DNA of 38,250 nt from the IMG/VR virus record IMGVR_UViG_2687453297_000004, one strand, 5' to 3'. The position numbers were made by a program, and so were the translations under genes. Below are positions 3,622 through 38,250 of this stretch, in pieces. The stretch is from a virus (lineage: Duplodnaviria; Heunggongvirae; Uroviricota; Caudoviricetes). The notes beneath the pieces were generated by a model. It was not told where the DNA came from and did no database searches. It worked only from the letters and a program-made list of their open reading frames with translations. Position 1 is the stretch's first letter, and each line of letters starts with the position of its first letter.

Positions 3622-4827
3622 TTAAACCCCTTTGACAACGTCAGCGTTGACCTGTGGAACCCCGATTTCAGCGGCCAGATTCATGGCGGCTATTACCAGG
3701 TTACTGACGGCCAGCGGATACAGCAGGCTGACCATATTTTTACGATGACTTCCCGGATTGCTCAGGCGGGCACGTATGGCATCCACTGCGCTGGCGTCCA
3801 TAATGTCCGTCAGTTGTTTACCGGCCCGTTGCAGTTTGAACGTCAGAAACTCTTCAAGGTTATTGTCCAGAGGCAGAAGTTCGACCACCTCACAGCGCTG
3901 AACGACTTCACGGACTTCCATATTGCGTTCAGACAGTTTTGTCGCCAGTTCCGGCTGGCCAATCAGCACGATGGACAGCAGTTTTTTGAAACCGGACTCC
4001 AGCTCAAAAAAGCGTTTGAGGTGTTTCAGTGTCGGAATGGGCAGACTGTGGGCCTCCTCAATCACCAGAACGTGGCTGAACCCCGCCTGGCTGCTGTCTT
4101 TCAGGACGCGATGCAACTGGCGAAAGCGGGCGTCCTGACTGCGTCTGATGCTTTCCAGTGGTGCGATGGTACTGATAATGGCTTCGGCAATCGCTGCTGC
4201 CTTCAGGGTTTTCCCTTTCACATCGTTGTCTTCCATAGCGATGATGTATGGCTCGATAACAATTACCGGCGCATTCTCGCGGTTGATACGTTCAGTCAGG
4301 TCGCGGCGCAGCGTGGATTTACCCGCACCGGACTCACCGATGACGGCCATAAATCCACCATGACGGGCTGTCTGGTACAGCGCCTCACGCACATAGCGGA
4401 TGTCCGGGGTGGTGAACACATCATCAGAACCCTGCATGGCTTCGTCGGCGAACGGGTCACGGAAAAGACCAAACGCTTTTTTGGTTGCTGGAAATAACAC
4501 CTGTTTTTTGAGTAACATATTCTCTTCCTCACTGAGGCTCGTTTTATCTGTGGTACCCGCTGTACGGGGCGTGGCCGCGACCTGTACAGCATCAAAACTC
4601 TTCGTTGTATCAATCCCCTGACTTTCCAGCCAGGACGCAAGACGCCGGCGCACTTCTCCGGGGCGGGTGCGGGGCCACGCGTTATGATTCACAATCTGGG
4701 CCAGCGTGGCCTCAGAAACATCGACAGCTCTCGCCACCACCGCCTGTGAGATACGGGCCTCTTTCAGTTGCTGCTTCAGTACCAGCATGTTTTCCTCCTC
4801 AGTTGCCGTTAACAATGCTGATAACAC
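3622..4827 (-). CDS. MuB-like AAA+ transposition ATPase (target DNA activator)
   Basis: 401 aa; Walker A GESGAGKST; N-terminal HTH-like segment; lies immediately downstream of and overlapping the transposase gene, as B follows A in Mu. Confidence 0.75.
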   Translation of the reverse strand: MLSALLTATEEENMLVLKQQLKEARISQAVVARAVDVSEATLAQIVNHNAWPRTRPGEVRRRLASWLESQGIDTTKSFDAVQVAATPRTAGTTDKTSLSEEENMLLKKQVLFPATKKAFGLFRDPFADEAMQGSDDVFTTPDIRYVREALYQTARHGGFMAVIGESGAGKSTLRRDLTERINRENAPVIVIEPYIIAMEDNDVKGKTLKAAAIAEAIISTIAPLESIRRSQDARFRQLHRVLKDSSQAGFSHVLVIEEAHSLPIPTLKHLKRFFELESGFKKLLSIVLIGQPELATKLSERNMEVREVVQRCEVVELLPLDNNLEEFLTFKLQRAGKQLTDIMDASAVDAIRARLSNPGSHRKNMVSLLYPLAVSNLVIAAMNLAAEIGVPQVNADVVKGV

Positions 4828-6568
4828 TGCTGCGGGCCGGCGTGGTCAGCGTGGCCATGACTTCATCCAGTGCGGCTTCCGGTACGCCGTCCGGGTACTG
4901 TGCCGTTAACTGGCGGTAATGTTCCGGCGTCCAGGTAAGGCCGTCGGCGCTGAACTTATCGCGCAGGGCTTTCGCGGCCTCCACATGAGTCATGGGACGT
5001 TGTTCAGTGCGCGGCCCGCGTACGTCAGAGGCCTGACCGCGCTTCGGCATATAGGCCGGAAGTGTGGCGTCATCAATATGTTTATACGGGTCAAGCCGCC
5101 CGCCGAACGGCAGCGCCTTCGCCTTGCGTGCGGCAGCTGCATCTGTGGCGTTGTCTGTACCGGTGACCAGTGCTTCAGTTTCTTTTGCCGCCGTCTGCGC
5201 CGGTGTTTCCGGCAGGGCTTTGTAACTTTCGCCAAATACCGCCGCGCCTTCAGCAAAGCCAAACTCGTTCTTTCTGACCTCTTCGACCAGGAAGAACGTC
5301 TCGTGGCCGTCCTCACCGGTCAGAACCACCTGTGCCACATCGCTGCGCCACGGGTTACGGGTAATCATCAGTTTTTCACCGACCAGTACGCCCGGTACCG
5401 TTGATACGTCAAATTCAGTGCCCCGGAACGAGACACGAAGTTTTGGCGTGACTTTGCGGAGTTCTGGCGCCGCCACAGCCAGTTCACGACATACCTCAAC
5501 GGAAGGCGCTTTTTTCAGCTGCTCAGCAGTAATCTTCAGCCAGATATCCGTGCGGGTTTTACCGTGGCGGCTGTGAACAGCCGTGGCGTTAAAGTGGCTG
5601 CGCCATTTCGCGGCCAGCGCGTTGAGTTCTTCCAGACTGTGAACCGGCCGGAACTTCAGACCCGGCTCCAGCTTGCGTTCGATAATGTCTCGCGCCTTTT
5701 CCACCTGTCCGGTGGCGCGGGCGTTATGCGGCTTGTGCGCTATCAGGTCAATGCCCAGTGAGCGGCACATGTTTTTCGTCATACCCGCGGTGTTTGCCGA
5801 GCCGGGGTCGAGATAGAGTATTTTTGGCACGCCGTGCAGCACGTCTGCGCCGCCACGCTCCTGCATGGCGTTGATAAGCACAGAACACAGGTTCTCACCG
5901 GATTCCGCACCCGTCACATACTCAACGTAAATCCAGCCGCTGGCATGGTCGGTAATCTCATAACTCCACACGCGGTCACTGGCGATACGGGCAAGGTTAG
6001 CGGGCTTGTTCTTGTAGAATTTCGCGCTGTCCATCACCTGCAGCCCTTTGTGTCCATTGCTCAAGTAGTAAAGCGTGCAGAGCGAGGCATCAATCTGCCA
6101 GACATGATTGGGATGCAGACTGGCCACTTCGGTATGCGGCGCAGGGGCATCCAGTTGTTCCGGGTGCAGGCCATAGTTACGCAGGGCACGGCTGATGGCA
6201 TCTTCGGACAACGGGAAAAACTCACCGGTGGTTTCATCTGTTCTGCCTGCGGAGATAAAGCCGTTAGCCCGCAGGGTTTCCACTGCATCCGCGATGGAAT
6301 AGAGACGCTTACCGTTCTTGCGGGTGGCCTCACGCAGTGTGGCAGATATCAGCGCGGCTTCGTCGCGGGTCAGGGCGCTGCGCCCGGCATCGGCGCGTTT
6401 TTTGCGTTTATCAGTCACAGAGACCTCCTTCAGCCTGCGCAGCAGAGTGGCGCGGGACATGCCAAGTTCAGCACAGGCAGCGTCGTATATTGCACCGCGT
6501 TTACCATGCCCCGCGTCACGTGCCGCGCGGGCGACATAAACCAGTCGTTCAGTCAGGGCAGCATTCAT
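4799..6568 (-). CDS. DDE transposase (Mu/rve integrase-core type)
   Basis: 589 aa; N-terminal HTH region; candidate DDE residues in HVWQIDAS, LYLDPGS and GQVEKA; position between the Ner-like and MuB-like genes. Confidence 0.85.
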   Translation of the reverse strand: MNAALTERLVYVARAARDAGHGKRGAIYDAACAELGMSRATLLRRLKEVSVTDKRKKRADAGRSALTRDEAALISATLREATRKNGKRLYSIADAVETLRANGFISAGRTDETTGEFFPLSEDAISRALRNYGLHPEQLDAPAPHTEVASLHPNHVWQIDASLCTLYYLSNGHKGLQVMDSAKFYKNKPANLARIASDRVWSYEITDHASGWIYVEYVTGAESGENLCSVLINAMQERGGADVLHGVPKILYLDPGSANTAGMTKNMCRSLGIDLIAHKPHNARATGQVEKARDIIERKLEPGLKFRPVHSLEELNALAAKWRSHFNATAVHSRHGKTRTDIWLKITAEQLKKAPSVEVCRELAVAAPELRKVTPKLRVSFRGTEFDVSTVPGVLVGEKLMITRNPWRSDVAQVVLTGEDGHETFFLVEEVRKNEFGFAEGAAVFGESYKALPETPAQTAAKETEALVTGTDNATDAAAARKAKALPFGGRLDPYKHIDDATLPAYMPKRGQASDVRGPRTEQRPMTHVEAAKALRDKFSADGLTWTPEHYRQLTAQYPDGVPEAALDEVMATLTTPARSSVISIVNGN

Positions 6569-34393: not shown

Positions 34394-35991
34394 TTATGGG
34401 AAACCTGAATGAAACAGAAAAGTGGGAAGAAAATATCTATCAACTGGAGACATCAGATCCGGTTCTGGGTGGTGCAGACGGGATATCAAATCGAGCCCCC
34501 CGGCAACTGGCAAACAGGACGAAATGGCTGAAGAAGAAAACGGAGGAAGCCGCACAGTCACTGGCTGAACACGTACGTTCCCGTAACCACCCGGACGCGA
34601 CACTGACAGCTAAGGGGTTCACCCAACTGAGCAGTGCCACCAACAGCACCTCTGAAACGCTGGCCGCCACACCAAAAGCGGTCAAGGCTGCATACGACCT
34701 GGCAGCCGGCAAGGCGCCTGCCAGCCACACTCACCCGTGGAGTCAGATAACGGGAGTGCCTGCGGCTTCACTGACGGCAAAAGGCACCGTACAACTGAGC
34801 AGCGCCACGGACAGTCAATCAGAAACTGAGGCTGCCACGCCGAAGGCTGTGAAAATCGCGTATGATCTGGCCCGGGGAAAATACACAGCCCAGGATGCAA
34901 CAACGACCCGTAAAGGGATCGTACAACTGAGCAGTGCCATCAACAGCACGTCTGAAACGCTGGCCGCCACACCAAAAGCGGTCAAGGCTGCATACGACCT
35001 GGCAGCCGGCAAGGCGCCTGCCAGCCACACTCACCCGTGGAGTCAGATAACGGGAGTGCCTGCGGCTTCACTGACGGCAAAAGGCACCGTACAACTGAGC
35101 AGCGCCACGGACAGTCAATCAGAAACTGAGGCTGCCACGCCGAAGGCGGTCAAGGCTGCATACGACCTTGCAGCCGGCAAGGCGCCCGTCAGCCACACTC
35201 ACCCGTGGAGTCAGATAACGGGAGTGCCTGCTGCCTCGCTGACGGCAAAAGGCACCGTACAACTGAGCAGTGCCATCAACAGCACGTCTGAAATACTGGC
35301 CGCCACACCGAAAGCGGTCAAGGCTGCATACGATCTGGCAAACGGAAAACAACCGGCAGATGCCACGCTCACTGCTCTGGCAGGACTTGCCACTGCAGCA
35401 GATCGGTTGCCTTATTTTACCGGAGCAGACCGCGCAGCGCTGGCAACCCTTACAGCTATTGGTCGCGCTATTATCGCTAAGGGCAGTATAAAAGATGTCC
35501 TCAATTACCTTGGTTTGGGGGAAGGCTCGGCGCTGCCCGTTGGTGTACCTGTTCCGTGGCCCACTGCCACACCGCCAGCAGGCTGGTTACAGTGCAACGG
35601 AGCTACGTTCACCAAAGAACAATATCCTGTTCTGGCCAGAGTCTACCCGACCCTCCGTCTTCCCGATTTGCGCGGTGAGTTTATCCGTGGATGGGATGAC
35701 GGACGAAAGATTGACACCGGGCGTGCCCTGCTAAGCAGCCAGAGCGGAATGATTGAGAAACACCGTCATATTGTTGTTGCCAATGATGGTTACGACACAA
35801 AAGATGAATGGGAACTGGCTGCGATTTTCAAAAAAACATACACACAAGGACGAGGACTTGATGCCACAAATACAGGAGGGAGTCTGACCCCATCACCAAC
35901 ACTTCATTCGCGAGGGAGTATCGGTAATACTGGCGGGAGGGAAACCCGTCCACGAAATATTGCCTTTAACTACATTGTCAGGGCGGCCTAA
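34390..35991 (+). CDS. Tail fiber protein (constant N-terminal part, internal fiber repeats, currently fused to C-terminal cassette 1)
   Basis: 533 aa; five copies of the motif VQLSSAxxSxSETxAATPKAVKxAYDLA; C-terminus PRNIAFNYIVRAA; a conserved linker (VPVPWPTATPPAGWL...) recurs in two downstream cassettes. Confidence 0.8.
   Translation: MIMGNLNETEKWEENIYQLETSDPVLGGADGISNRAPRQLANRTKWLKKKTEEAAQSLAEHVRSRNHPDATLTAKGFTQLSSATNSTSETLAATPKAVKAAYDLAAGKAPASHTHPWSQITGVPAASLTAKGTVQLSSATDSQSETEAATPKAVKIAYDLARGKYTAQDATTTRKGIVQLSSAINSTSETLAATPKAVKAAYDLAAGKAPASHTHPWSQITGVPAASLTAKGTVQLSSATDSQSETEAATPKAVKAAYDLAAGKAPVSHTHPWSQITGVPAASLTAKGTVQLSSAINSTSEILAATPKAVKAAYDLANGKQPADATLTALAGLATAADRLPYFTGADRAALATLTAIGRAIIAKGSIKDVLNYLGLGEGSALPVGVPVPWPTATPPAGWLQCNGATFTKEQYPVLARVYPTLRLPDLRGEFIRGWDDGRKIDTGRALLSSQSGMIEKHRHIVVANDGYDTKDEWELAAIFKKTYTQGRGLDATNTGGSLTPSPTLHSRGSIGNTGGRETRPRNIAFNYIVRAA
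34621..35340 (+). repeat. Near-identical 300-bp tandem duplication inside the tail fiber gene
   Basis: 34621..34856 and 34921..35156 are almost identical by direct comparison; a partial third unit follows to about 35340. Confidence 0.85.
35498..35523 (+). other. Candidate serine-invertase crossover site (gix/hix-like), site a, inside the tail fiber gene
   Basis: ...ACC TT GGTTTGGGGGAA at the 5' boundary of a homology block of about 190 bp shared with the inverted cassette at 37410..37606. Confidence 0.45.
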
Positions 35992-36008
35992 ACGTTGGTT
36001 TAGGAGAA
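35983..36008 (+). other. Candidate crossover site b (direct orientation relative to site a)
   Basis: CCTAAACG TT GGTTTAGGAGAA with imperfect dyad CCTAAAC/GTTTAGG, overlapping the tail fiber stop, at the 5' edge of cassette 2. Confidence 0.4.
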
Positions 36009-36029
36009 GGCTCGGCGCTACCCGTTGGT

Positions 36030-36512
36030 GTGCCTGTTCCGTGGCCCACCGCCACACCGCCAGCAGGCTGGTTAAAGTGCGACGGGCGCGCCTTTACAAA
36101 AGAACAATATCCTGTTCTGGCCAGAGCCTACCCGACCCTCCGTCTTCCCGATTTACGCGGTGAGTTTATCCGTGGATGGGACGACGGGCGCAAAGTTGAT
36201 ACAGGACGTAAGTTGCTGTCCGCACAAGGGGCAACGCTGTTAAGAACAGCAATGCTGGATTATTATAACCAGGACACTACGGGAACCTCGGGGATAGTCG
36301 GCATGGGATTCAACAATGAAGATTCCATTACAGACCTTCGTGAGGGCAGCTTTAAAATGCCGGACGGGACAACATTCAGCGATCCTGTCGTGGCAATGTC
36401 AGACAATGGTATGCAGGCTACTATTCTGACCTCTATCAGAAGCGGGTATGCGAAGGGTATCACTGTCAGACCCCGTAGCATTGCACTTAATTACATTGTG
36501 AGGGCAGTTTAA
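36030..36512 (+). CDS. Alternative tail fiber C-terminal cassette 2 (no independent start; frame open from about 35970)
   Basis: Begins with the conserved linker VPVPWPTATPPAGWLKCDG...LRGEFIRGWDDGRK, then a divergent distal domain ending SIALNYIVRAV; its stop overlaps the start of the tail fiber assembly gene. Confidence 0.6.
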   Translation: MPVPWPTATPPAGWLKCDGRAFTKEQYPVLARAYPTLRLPDLRGEFIRGWDDGRKVDTGRKLLSAQGATLLRTAMLDYYNQDTTGTSGIVGMGFNNEDSITDLREGSFKMPDGTTFSDPVVAMSDNGMQATILTSIRSGYAKGITVRPRSIALNYIVRAV

Positions 36513-37126
36513 TGAGTAACACTGCAGTTCTGGATGAAAACGGTATCGCCACTGTAGCGGGCGATATCACTGTATATCACTATGACGAGGAAACCCGGGA
36601 ATACACCTCATCCTCTGTGGAGTATCTCGCCCTTGGGGTGGGTACTCCGGCACATTCGTGCGCCGATGCACCGCCGGAGGCAATTTCGGGTTACGTGGTT
36701 TGCCGGACTGCCACGCTGAACGGGTGGGAGCATGTGCCTGATCACCGCGGCGAGACGGTATACAGCACGGAGAACGGTAACCCCGTTCTGATTACCCAAC
36801 CGGGTGATTACCCGGCGGACACCACCACAAAACAGCCAGCCACGCCATGGGATACCTGGAACGGTGAGGCGTGGGTAACCGATACTGAACGGCAGCGAGC
36901 CGCAGAACTGGAGGTTGCCAGACAACAACGCCAGCAACGGGTGAAACAGGCGATGGCGTCCGTCGATCTTATCAACCTCAAACTGCGTGCTGGTCGCAGT
37001 CTGACACCAGAAGAAACGGCAAAACTGAACGCCGTGCTGGATTATATCGACGAGCTGAACGCACTGGATATCAGCACGGCACCTGAAATCAGCTGGCCGG
37101 AAGCGCCACTGGCACTTGCCAGTTGA
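36512..37126 (+). CDS. Tail fiber assembly protein (Tfa/U-like chaperone)
   Basis: 204 aa; TAATG coupling to cassette 2; sequence character typical of tail fiber assembly proteins. Confidence 0.7.
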   Translation: MSNTAVLDENGIATVAGDITVYHYDEETREYTSSSVEYLALGVGTPAHSCADAPPEAISGYVVCRTATLNGWEHVPDHRGETVYSTENGNPVLITQPGDYPADTTTKQPATPWDTWNGEAWVTDTERQRAAELEVARQQRQQRVKQAMASVDLINLKLRAGRSLTPEETAKLNAVLDYIDELNALDISTAPEISWPEAPLALAS

Positions 37127-37132
37127 ACGGTA

Positions 37133-37606
37133 TCACGCCGCCCTCACGATATAGTTAAACGCGATATTGCGGGGGCGGGTTATGTTAAAGAATGCTCCGT
37201 TTAATTCGGCTTTTGCGCGACTGTTTGTTCCACCCAGCACTGCGTACCACAAATAATCGCTACGGTAATTCCCCGCAAACACCTTATCGCCGCCATAGTC
37301 AATATTATTTCCGTTACTCATGTACGAGATATCAAGCGAAGAATCGTTATCGTCATGACCGCCGACCAGTGTACCTTTCTGCCATGAAAGCAACTTACGC
37401 CCCTCGTCAATCTTGCGCCCGTCGTCCCATCCACGGATAAACTCACCGCGTAAATCGGGAAGACGGAGGGTCGGGTAGACTCTGGCCAGAACAGGATATT
37501 GTTCTTTGGTGAACGTAGCTCCGTTGCACTGTAACCAGCCTGCTGGCGGTGTGGCGGTGGGCCACGGAACAGGTACACCAACGGGCAGCGCCGAGCCTTC
37601 CCCCAA
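37133..37606 (-). CDS. Alternative tail fiber C-terminal cassette 3 (inverted, no independent start)
   Basis: Minus-strand ORF encoding the same linker followed by a third distinct distal domain ending PRNIAFNYIVRAA; the first 190 bp or so are nearly identical to 35511..35700 in inverted orientation. Confidence 0.6.
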   Translation of the reverse strand: MGEGSALPVGVPVPWPTATPPAGWLQCNGATFTKEQYPVLARVYPTLRLPDLRGEFIRGWDDGRKIDEGRKLLSWQKGTLVGGHDDNDSSLDISYMSNGNNIDYGGDKVFAGNYRSDYLWYAVLGGTNSRAKAELNGAFFNITRPRNIAFNYIVRAA

Positions 37607-37623
37607 ACCAACGTTTATCTCTC
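37598..37623 (-). other. Candidate crossover site c (inverted relative to sites a and b)
   Basis: Reverse complement reads AGATAAACG TT GGTTTGGGGGAA, at the boundary of the inverted homology block and 55 bp upstream of the invertase gene. Confidence 0.45.
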
Positions 37624-37677
37624 AAATCCTCCCCACATTATCTCAGTACTTTAACCACTCAAAAGGGAGTATTTTTA

Positions 37678-38250
37678 ATGCTGATTGGCTACATACGTGT
37701 GTCAACAAATGACCAAAACACAGATTTGCAACGCAATGCATTAATGTGCGCAGGATGTGAACAGATTTTTGAGGACAAAATGAGCGGAACCAAGTCGGAA
37801 CGACCAGGCCTGAAACGCGCTTTAAAGTGCCTTAAAAGAGGGGATACATTGGTGGTCTGGAAGCTGGATCGGTTGGGTAGAAGAATGAAACACCTCATTG
37901 CTCTCACAGAAGAGCTACGCGCAAAAGGTGTCAATTTTCGCAGTCTGACGGATTCAATCGATACCAGCACTCCGATGGGAAGGTTCTTTTTTCATATGAT
38001 GGGTGCACTGGCAGAAATGGAGCGTGAACTGATAGTTGAGCGCACGCTGGCTGGACTGGCTGCTGCGCGAGCACAAGGAAGAGTTGGAGGACGTCGCCCG
38101 AAACTGACGAAGGAGCAGCATGAGCAGATCGCAAGATTGCTCCAGAAAGGGTATGACAGAAAGCGGCTGGCAATTATCTATGATATTGGACTGTCAACGA
38201 TCTACCGCTATCACCCTGTTGGGACTGTCATAACGCAACCTGAAATGTAA
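37678..38250 (+). CDS. gin: Serine recombinase, DNA invertase (Gin/Hin/Cin/Pin family)
   Basis: 190 aa; N-terminus MLIGYIRVSTNDQNTDLQ with catalytic-serine context; near-colinear with Mu Gin as I recall it; SD AAGGGAG upstream. Confidence 0.9.
   Translation: MLIGYIRVSTNDQNTDLQRNALMCAGCEQIFEDKMSGTKSERPGLKRALKCLKRGDTLVVWKLDRLGRRMKHLIALTEELRAKGVNFRSLTDSIDTSTPMGRFFFHMMGALAEMERELIVERTLAGLAAARAQGRVGGRRPKLTKEQHEQIARLLQKGYDRKRLAIIYDIGLSTIYRYHPVGTVITQPEM

Follow-up and report, generated by a model that had tools for sequence, protein, structure and literature searches.

A stretch of viral DNA of 38,250 nucleotides (Caudoviricetes; IMG/VR record IMGVR_UViG_2687453297_000004), hereafter called the window, ends in a tail-fibre locus that is very likely a Gin-family multiple-inversion host-range switch of a Mu-like prophage, with four DNA isomers and three fibre tips. 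The locus is ordered Sc-Sv1 / Sv2-tfa / Sv3' / gin, where Sc denotes the constant 5' part of the tail-fibre gene, Sv1 to Sv3 the cassettes that can follow it, tfa a tail-fibre assembly (chaperone) gene and gin the invertase gene, and a prime marks an inverted segment. We observed more than two crossover sites in both orientations, a single invertase gene, a constant part with three cassettes, and isomers that lie one inversion apart in related prophages. The sequences compared here show directly how the locus and its sites are built, which invertase it encodes, that the chimeras are in frame and that isomers occur in nature; the switch is real and probably active. An earlier note on this DNA had described a fibre gene followed by two start-less cassettes, one on the plus and one on the minus strand, and all of these elements are present within a few bases of where it had placed them. 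Its layout lacked the tail-fibre assembly gene at 36512..37126, which we add here.

Sc occupies 34396..35511 on the plus strand, up to the crossover dinucleotide, as part of an open reading frame (ORF), and contains Phage_fiber_2 repeats (Pfam PF03406, E 1.5e-93). In the window it is fused to cassette Sv1 (35512..35991, plus strand), giving a tail-fibre gene that spans 34396..35991 and terminates at the TAA stop codon 35989-35991. Two further start-less cassettes are silent in this isomer, namely Sv2 (35997..36512, plus strand) and the inverted Sv3 (37133..37609, minus strand). The cassettes had been recognized correctly before, but the starts assigned to the two silent ones, 36030 and 37606, need revision: the true starts, 35997 and 37609, lie at the crossover sites, and the GTG and TTG codons are incidental. 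All three cassettes bear the phage tail collar domain (Pfam Collar, PF07484), and all three open with a linker of 218 bp that is 88-96% identical between copies. The repeat finder accordingly returned a direct repeat between 35507-35724 and 35992-36209 (88% identical) and inverted repeats between 35507-35724 and 37397-37614 (96% complementary) and between 35989-36220 and 37386-37617 (90% complementary). At the protein level, the first ~78 residues of the cassettes are near-invariant, the middle is unalignable and the last 14 residues are conserved again (RPRNIAFNYIVRAA or RPRSIALNYIVRAV), in agreement with the shared linker and subsequent divergence that had been reported from the sequence.

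Sv1 opens with a collar linker, continues with a variable tip and closes with a C-terminal NIAFNYIVRAA strand. A PDB sequence search revealed that it resembles the tip of the T4 gp37 fibre (2xgf, E 1e-17), and the match spans the N-terminal collar part as well as the C-terminal NIAFNYIVR strand, with the HxH motif aligned. This match fits a tip in which the chain would exit the collar, form a variable distal domain and then re-enter the collar.

Each cassette begins at a 26-bp site with a 12-2-12 arrangement. Site a (35498-35523, plus strand; TCCTCAATTACC TT GGTTTGGGGGAA) is centred at 35510-35511, site b (35983-36008, plus strand; GCGGCCTAAACG TT GGTTTAGGAGAA) at 35995-35996, and site c (37598-37623; GAGAGATAAACG TT GGTTTGGGGGAA read on the minus strand) at 37610-37611. 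The repeat finder and the motif positions both indicated that a and b are direct and that c is inverted relative to them, as had been claimed. The motif TTGGTTTRGGRGAAGG occurs exactly three times in the 38 kb (35510 plus, 35995 plus and 37596-37611 minus), whereas shuffling gave an expectation of 0.07, and three matches were reached in none of 100 shuffles. The central dinucleotide is TT in all three sites, and the left half of site b holds the stop codon of Sv1. A gix/hix-like site before each cassette, as proposed in the earlier note, is indeed present, and homology begins ~3 nt left of the central TT. Alignment with known gix sequences, also suggested there, bore out the right half-sites, where 9-10 of 12 positions agree with Mu gix half-sites. 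The sites further match the e14 repeat at 18-19 of 21 positions, and site c and Mu gixR align with each other and lie similarly far upstream of their invertase genes. Site a equals the published 5' crossover site of prophage Phi2 of Escherichia coli EC958 except for two bases in its right half, and site c is identical to the published 3' site of the same prophage. In the loci compared, the left half-site beside Sc is always TCCTCAATTACC and that beside gin is always GAGAGATAAACG, while the left half at internal sites is the 3' end of the preceding cassette. In every locus the cassette switches directly to the right of the TT and the left half-site keeps to its flank, as is expected of exchange at the central dinucleotide.

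The junctions that inversion would create were built from the window and searched for in complete E. coli genomes. The query for the Sc-Sv3 junction was at least 80% covered in 103 E. coli genomes, with the top matches being single pieces at 98-99% identity, and the Sv1'-gin junction was found at up to 99.9% identity. We also sorted 16 loci of this prophage family according to their BLAST matches and the sequence at each site (loci are designated L001, L002 and so on). Among those with the cassette set Sv1, Sv2 and Sv3, strain UPEC129 (L009) is arranged as Sc-Sv3 / tfa' Sv2' / Sv1' / gin, which is the product of an a-by-c inversion. Strains CUVET21-PYO5 (L012) and MS 21-1 (L010) are arranged as Sc-Sv2-tfa / Sv3' / Sv1' / gin, which is the product of the next inversion, and the cassettes of these three loci are 97-100% identical to those of the window. 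The two rearrangements anticipated from the window, an a-by-c inversion that fuses the third cassette and a later inversion with b that fuses the second, are thus both found in nature. Similar pairs exist for other cassette sets: L015 and L005/L006, with Sv1, Sv2 and Sv5, are one large inversion apart; L002 and L014, with Sv4, Sv2 and Sv3, are one small inversion apart, via the internal site; and L001 and L004 represent either state of a form that has two cassettes, Sv2 and Sv3. Overall, Sc is fused to Sv2 in L001, L003, L005, L006, L010, L012 and L018 and to Sv3 in, for example, L004 and L009, and Sv1 lies inverted beside gin in L005, L006, L009, L010, L011 and L012. These isomers were compared across genomes; coexistence within one culture is taken from the literature discussed below.

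The fusions predicted for the window are all open when assembled in silico, with lengths of 531, 543 (Sc-Sv2) and 530 (Sc-Sv3) amino acids. The Sc-Sv2 and Sc-Sv3 chimeras have annotated counterparts of the same length in the genomes that carry these isomers, with 516-538 positions identical, and all three Sc-cassette fusions are annotated as genes in other genomes, which supports the claim of three alternative tips. The earlier note had also considered that the second and third cassettes might be decayed remnants never fused to the fibre gene. We found instead that all three cassettes are open from site to stop and 97-100% identical to copies that are fused to Sc in other genomes.

The gene directly to the right, at 37678..38250 on the plus strand with its start slightly corrected, adjoins site c and encodes a Gin-family serine DNA invertase of 190 amino acids (Pfam Resolvase PF00239, E 8e-51; HTH_7 PF02796, E 1e-12). 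In line with its earlier description as gin-like, the protein is 77% identical to Mu Gin. Residues 1-181 can be aligned with two Gin structures, 4m6f and 3uj3 (E 2e-93), and the protein is full-length and retains Ser9 in RVSTNDQ; the mutated catalytic serine named earlier as a possible sign of inactivity was not found in it. Compared with the EC958 Phi2 invertase, it shows 0 differences in 190 positions. Residues specific to Fis/enhancer-dependent invertases have been described among the basic residues of helix B (Hin 47, 48 and 51) and, in helix 1 of the DNA-binding domain, at Q151/R154/L155 (McLean et al., PMC3798978). Inspection of the alignment showed that the window invertase has K46, R47 and K50 (LKRALK) as well as the Q, R and L of EQIARLL at the Gin-aligned positions. 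In its domains, size, Ser9, Fis-contact residues and 26-bp sites it agrees with the Gin/Hin/Cin/Pin (Din) invertases. Judging from the natural isomers and from published PacBio evidence for the identical EC958 protein, this enzyme would catalyse inversion between its sites. A candidate Fis-dependent recombinational enhancer may lie in the 5' end of its gene (37699..37762, no strand assigned), where 51 of 64 nt are identical to the matching stretch of Mu gin, a stretch that is also coding. This candidate is ~95 bp from the centre of site c, and the distance from hixL to the proximal Fis site is ~100 bp (PMC3798978).

Taken together, these features suggest the following mechanism. The shaft encoded by Sc ends at a 26-bp gix-like site, and three alternative start-less 3' cassettes each begin at one. 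Each cassette would supply a gp37-like tip composed of the conserved collar linker, a variable receptor-binding middle and the conserved C-terminal strand. The invertase would pair two inverted sites, probably within a Fis/enhancer invertasome whose enhancer resides inside its own 5' coding region, and cut at the central TT; strand rotation and religation would then invert the DNA between the sites. Recombination of a with c would produce a large inversion of ~2.1 kb and place Sv3 on the shaft, whereas recombination of b with c would produce a small inversion of ~1.6 kb and reshuffle the silent cassettes. An a-by-c inversion would leave site b in the opposite orientation to the shaft site, and another inversion would then bring Sv2 and its coupled chaperone onto the shaft. 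The direct sites a and b would normally be spared, since invertases of this family invert DNA in preference to deleting it. A population of lysogens could in this way release virions with three receptor specificities. By analogy with studies on an identical enzyme or homologous loci, switching would occur within cultures, depend on gin and alter the host range; the dependence on Fis and the receptors of the tips are likewise predicted features.

The tfa gene (36512..37126, plus strand) encodes a tail-fibre assembly protein of 204 amino acids (Pfam Caudo_TAP PF02413, E 3.5e-28) and is coupled to Sv2, with the Sv2 stop and the tfa start overlapping in TAATG (36510-36514). It lies beside Sv2 and in the same orientation in every locus compared, and the single tfa of the window locus belongs to Sv2 only. 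A sequence search gave no relative of known structure for the tfa protein. We noticed that tfa is antisense to the fibre gene when Sv3 is fused and in some arrangements in which Sv1 or another cassette is fused (L004, L009, L014 and L015).

Several observations weigh against a three-tip inversion switch in this form. Only Sv2 comes with a chaperone gene, and both the Sc-Sv3 isomer and the Sc-Sv1 / Sv3 arrangement have this gene antisense to the fibre gene. The folding of the Sv1 and Sv3 tips is left unexplained; tips of these types presumably fold without tfa. A search of complete E. coli genomes did not turn up the fourth isomer of the window's cassette set (Sc-Sv1 / Sv3 / tfa' Sv2'), and analogues of this arrangement were seen for other cassette sets only. 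The left half-sites match Mu gix half-sites poorly, at 4-7 of 12 positions. Neither the right half-site variants (GGTTTAGGAGAA and GGTTTGGGGGAA) nor the linker variants strictly follow the cassettes, Sv2 being found behind either right half-site variant, and this implies some homologous exchange or gene conversion inside the 218-bp linker. The candidate enhancer is inseparable from conservation of the coding sequence, so that the similarity seen in alignments with Mu gin and the EPEC (enteropathogenic E. coli) invertase gene is consistent with an enhancer and no demonstration of one. Finally, the activity of the window's own copy is deduced from its sequence and from the behaviour of its relatives.

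The mosaic distribution of linker and right-half-site variants with respect to the cassettes bears directly on the question of whether the invertase makes the isomers at all. They might instead arise by RecA-dependent homologous recombination between the linkers, with the invertase uninvolved, and the length of these repeats (218 bp) and their identity of 88-96% would be suited to such exchange. However, the homology starts ~3 nt short of the crossover dinucleotide in 26-bp sites that are consensus-like, the junction is at the site in 16 of 16 loci of the prophage family, and an intact Gin homologue is always adjacent. High-frequency switching in cultures has been reported for EC958 and for EPEC, and deletion of gin locks the homologous locus of phage FRphi. 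We therefore regard a purely RecA-dependent origin as highly improbable. A frozen or decaying copy, with the second and third cassettes as remnants and an unexpressed or inactive invertase, strikes us as very unlikely. It draws on the indirect nature of the evidence for activity in the window strain and on damage seen in relatives, such as an element of the IS21 family of insertion sequences (IS) in the linker of L010 and the fragmented fibre gene of L003. It also draws on a simple scan for sigma-70-like promoters, which found none in 35300-38250, against 2.5 expected there, the region upstream of the invertase gene included. This empty scan fits promoterless cassettes, yet it misses the promoter of the invertase too and hence says little. 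Against decay stand the three open cassettes with their near-identical Sc-fused copies elsewhere (97-100%), the intactness of all three sites, and the identity of the invertase with that of EC958 Phi2, whose segment has been seen both ways round.

It could also be argued that the locus is a two-state switch between a and c only, with site b an inactive by-product of tandem cassette insertion. In the left half of site b no more than 5-6 of 12 positions agree with Mu half-sites, and the published table for EC958 gives Phi2 two sites only. On the other hand, L002 and L014 differ by exactly the small inversion through the internal site, the L012/L010 arrangement is reachable from that of the window only via site b, and the small inversion has been seen directly in EPEC. 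An inactive site b is extremely improbable in the light of these arrangements, and a multiple-inversion switch operated by the adjacent Gin-type invertase is the reading that we retain.

The start of the tail-fibre gene is most likely the ATG at 34396, because RefSeq homologues begin at the equivalent ATG; the mechanical ORF start is 34390. Within Sc, tandem repeats were detected in 34590-35340, with a period of 168 nt in 2.6 copies and with 282-nt copies spaced 300 and 168 nt apart. Among related prophages the fibre gene ranges from 1581 to 1932 nt, and with these differences in length the number of repeats in the shaft appears to vary. In strain B36 (L003, 1705-2286), Sc is annotated as three pseudogene fragments, and the cassettes and invertase are intact. 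In strain MS 21-1 (L010, 2156-4407), an IS21-family element, ISEc10 (istA/istB), splits the Sv3 cassette in the linker.

Beyond the fibre locus, the window encodes a Mu-type portal (Portal_Mu), a Mu F-like protein, a sheath protein, an rve-family transposase (4799..6568, minus strand) and an AAA ATPase (3622..4827, minus strand), with early and late genes on opposite strands. Relatives are inserted at ascB, rstA, yfaL, ssuB/pepN, potG, mdfA, sinI, clbH, irp2 and aroA, that is, at a minimum of 10 positions. In these relatives host DNA begins roughly 40 to 350 bp past the invertase gene, and the window ends at the invertase stop codon. The Mu-type genes and scattered insertion positions together identify the window as a transposable Mu-like E. 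coli prophage.

Seven or more cassette types exist in the prophage family, each locus having between two and four cassettes, and four-cassette loci are found in strains A24 (L011) and EC190759 (L016). Mu-like, P2-like and P1-like elements have cassette types in common. L004 and L014 sit at one and the same insertion site (ssuB/pepN), with the same flank, and differ by one whole cassette, Sv4. Rightward from the TT, the L004 linker is the same as the second linker of L014 starting with the very first base, which places the junction of the deletion or gain within the first 41 bp of the repeat. This difference is compatible with a rare, precise site-specific deletion or gain between sites of the a-by-b type, and also with homologous recombination at the edge of the repeat. 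A more speculative view, which we consider rather unlikely, is that the cassettes are self-contained mobile modules, occasionally excised and re-inserted in an integron-like manner by the invertase acting between direct sites; each module would carry a right half-site at its 5' end and a left half-site overlapping the stop codon at its 3' end. Such modules would move tips among Mu-, P2- and P1-like elements that share a cell, and how many cassettes a locus has (2, 3, 4 or at least 11) would follow from their excision and insertion. The shared cassette types, the varying cassette number and the one-cassette difference between L004 and L014 are compatible with this view, and homologous recombination through the conserved linker accounts equally well for them.

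The locus is close to already known, the same design having been published for close relatives. The earlier note was right to place it beyond a two-state segment, but it overstated the novelty, as three-site and larger Gin-family systems, one of them with an identical invertase, have been published. The experiments that it suggested have likewise already been done on the identical enzyme or on homologous loci, and the current understanding of the mechanism is unchanged. For annotation, the two 'phage tail protein' fragments would be functional alternative fibre ends and not pseudogenes, and a single assembly displays one of four locus isomers. More broadly, a widespread Mu-like prophage family, present in the sequence type 131 (ST131) strain EC958 and many other E. 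coli, draws its collar-type tips, of at least seven types, from a pool common to P2-like prophages and P1-like plasmids.

With respect to known systems, Mu resembles the window in being a transposable phage that follows the principle of a constant and a variable part and in its Gin. The Mu G segment has two sites, two states and a chaperone for each variable part (U and U'), whereas the window has three collar-type cassettes and a single chaperone. Membership among the classical two-state G/C/P segments (Mu, P1, e14) was accordingly rejected on the basis of three sites, three cassettes and one tfa. The term 'shufflon-like' used in the earlier note fits the logic only, and the locus does not belong to the R64-type shufflons (Rci / sfx / pilV), as its recombinase is of the serine resolvase/invertase family and not a tyrosine recombinase such as Rci.

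The P1-like plasmid pPEC399_2 (L017) shares with the window a site (AAAACG TT GGTTTGGGGGAA), the collar linker and an invertase that is 84% identical. As in the window, the constant part in P1-like regions takes many start-less 3' ends, and the homologous cassette types include Sv1. Unlike the window, pPEC399_2 has at least 11 cassettes, several of them duplicated, in a plasmid-prophage backbone. We take its region to be of the p15B Min type. Six sites have been described in p15B.

Enterobacter phage FRphi has three C-terminal fibre isoforms and a downstream gin, an arrangement that was called a 'shufflon' (Nat Microbiol 2026, PMC13418256). Chromosomal and virion DNA both contain the isoforms side by side, the state is locked when gin is deleted, and a single isoform was able to infect the tested host, its receptor being FhuA (PMC13418256). 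FRphi is a different phage with a different host, and its likeness to the window rests on the published architecture. Closer to the window is the P2-like prophage of EPEC E2348/69, with three ~215-bp repeats beginning ACCTTGGTTTGGGGGAAGG (Goldberg et al. 2014, PMC4272514). Four variants of this locus with three C-termini coexist in cultures, as confirmed by polymerase chain reaction (PMC4272514). This locus (L007, NC_011601.1 1891695-1893703) shares the architecture and the collar linker of the window and has one tfa, an invertase 86% identical to that of the window and one Sv1-type cassette, and its predominant state also has tfa antisense. It differs from the window in the P2-like host element, in the constant fibre part and in two of the three cassettes. 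The same strain carries a Mu-type prophage (L008, NC_011601.1 2746000-2754000) whose fibre segment was reported in orientations of ~60:40 (Goldberg et al., PMC4272514). No adjacent recombinase is annotated at L008, where only a 93-nt partial ORF precedes eutC, so that inversion there would need an invertase supplied in trans from another prophage, an argument that Forde et al. make for EC958 Phi4 (PMC4134206).

The closest known system is EC958 Phi2, which belongs to the same prophage family and shares with the window the outer left half-sites (TCCTCAATTACC and GAGAGATAAACG), Sc, Sv2 and tfa. Its published sites are TCCTCAATTACCTTGGTTTAGGAGAA and GAGAGATAAACGTTGGTTTGGGGGAA, its repeat measures 227 bp, and PacBio reads showed its invertible segment of 2067 bp either way round (Forde et al. 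2014, PMC4134206). EC958 Phi2 (L018) carries Sc-Sv2-tfa / Sv5' / Sv6', whereas the window carries Sc-Sv1 / Sv2-tfa / Sv3'. It has been described as a two-site mirror-image switch (PMC4134206). We found that L018 (NZ_HG941718.1 1003500-1011000) has three cassettes and an internal third site, GGCATAGAAACG TT GGTTTGGGGGAA, in reverse complement at ~5011, which is missing from Table 3 of that paper. Loci described as two-state, such as EC958 Phi2, can thus hold a third site.

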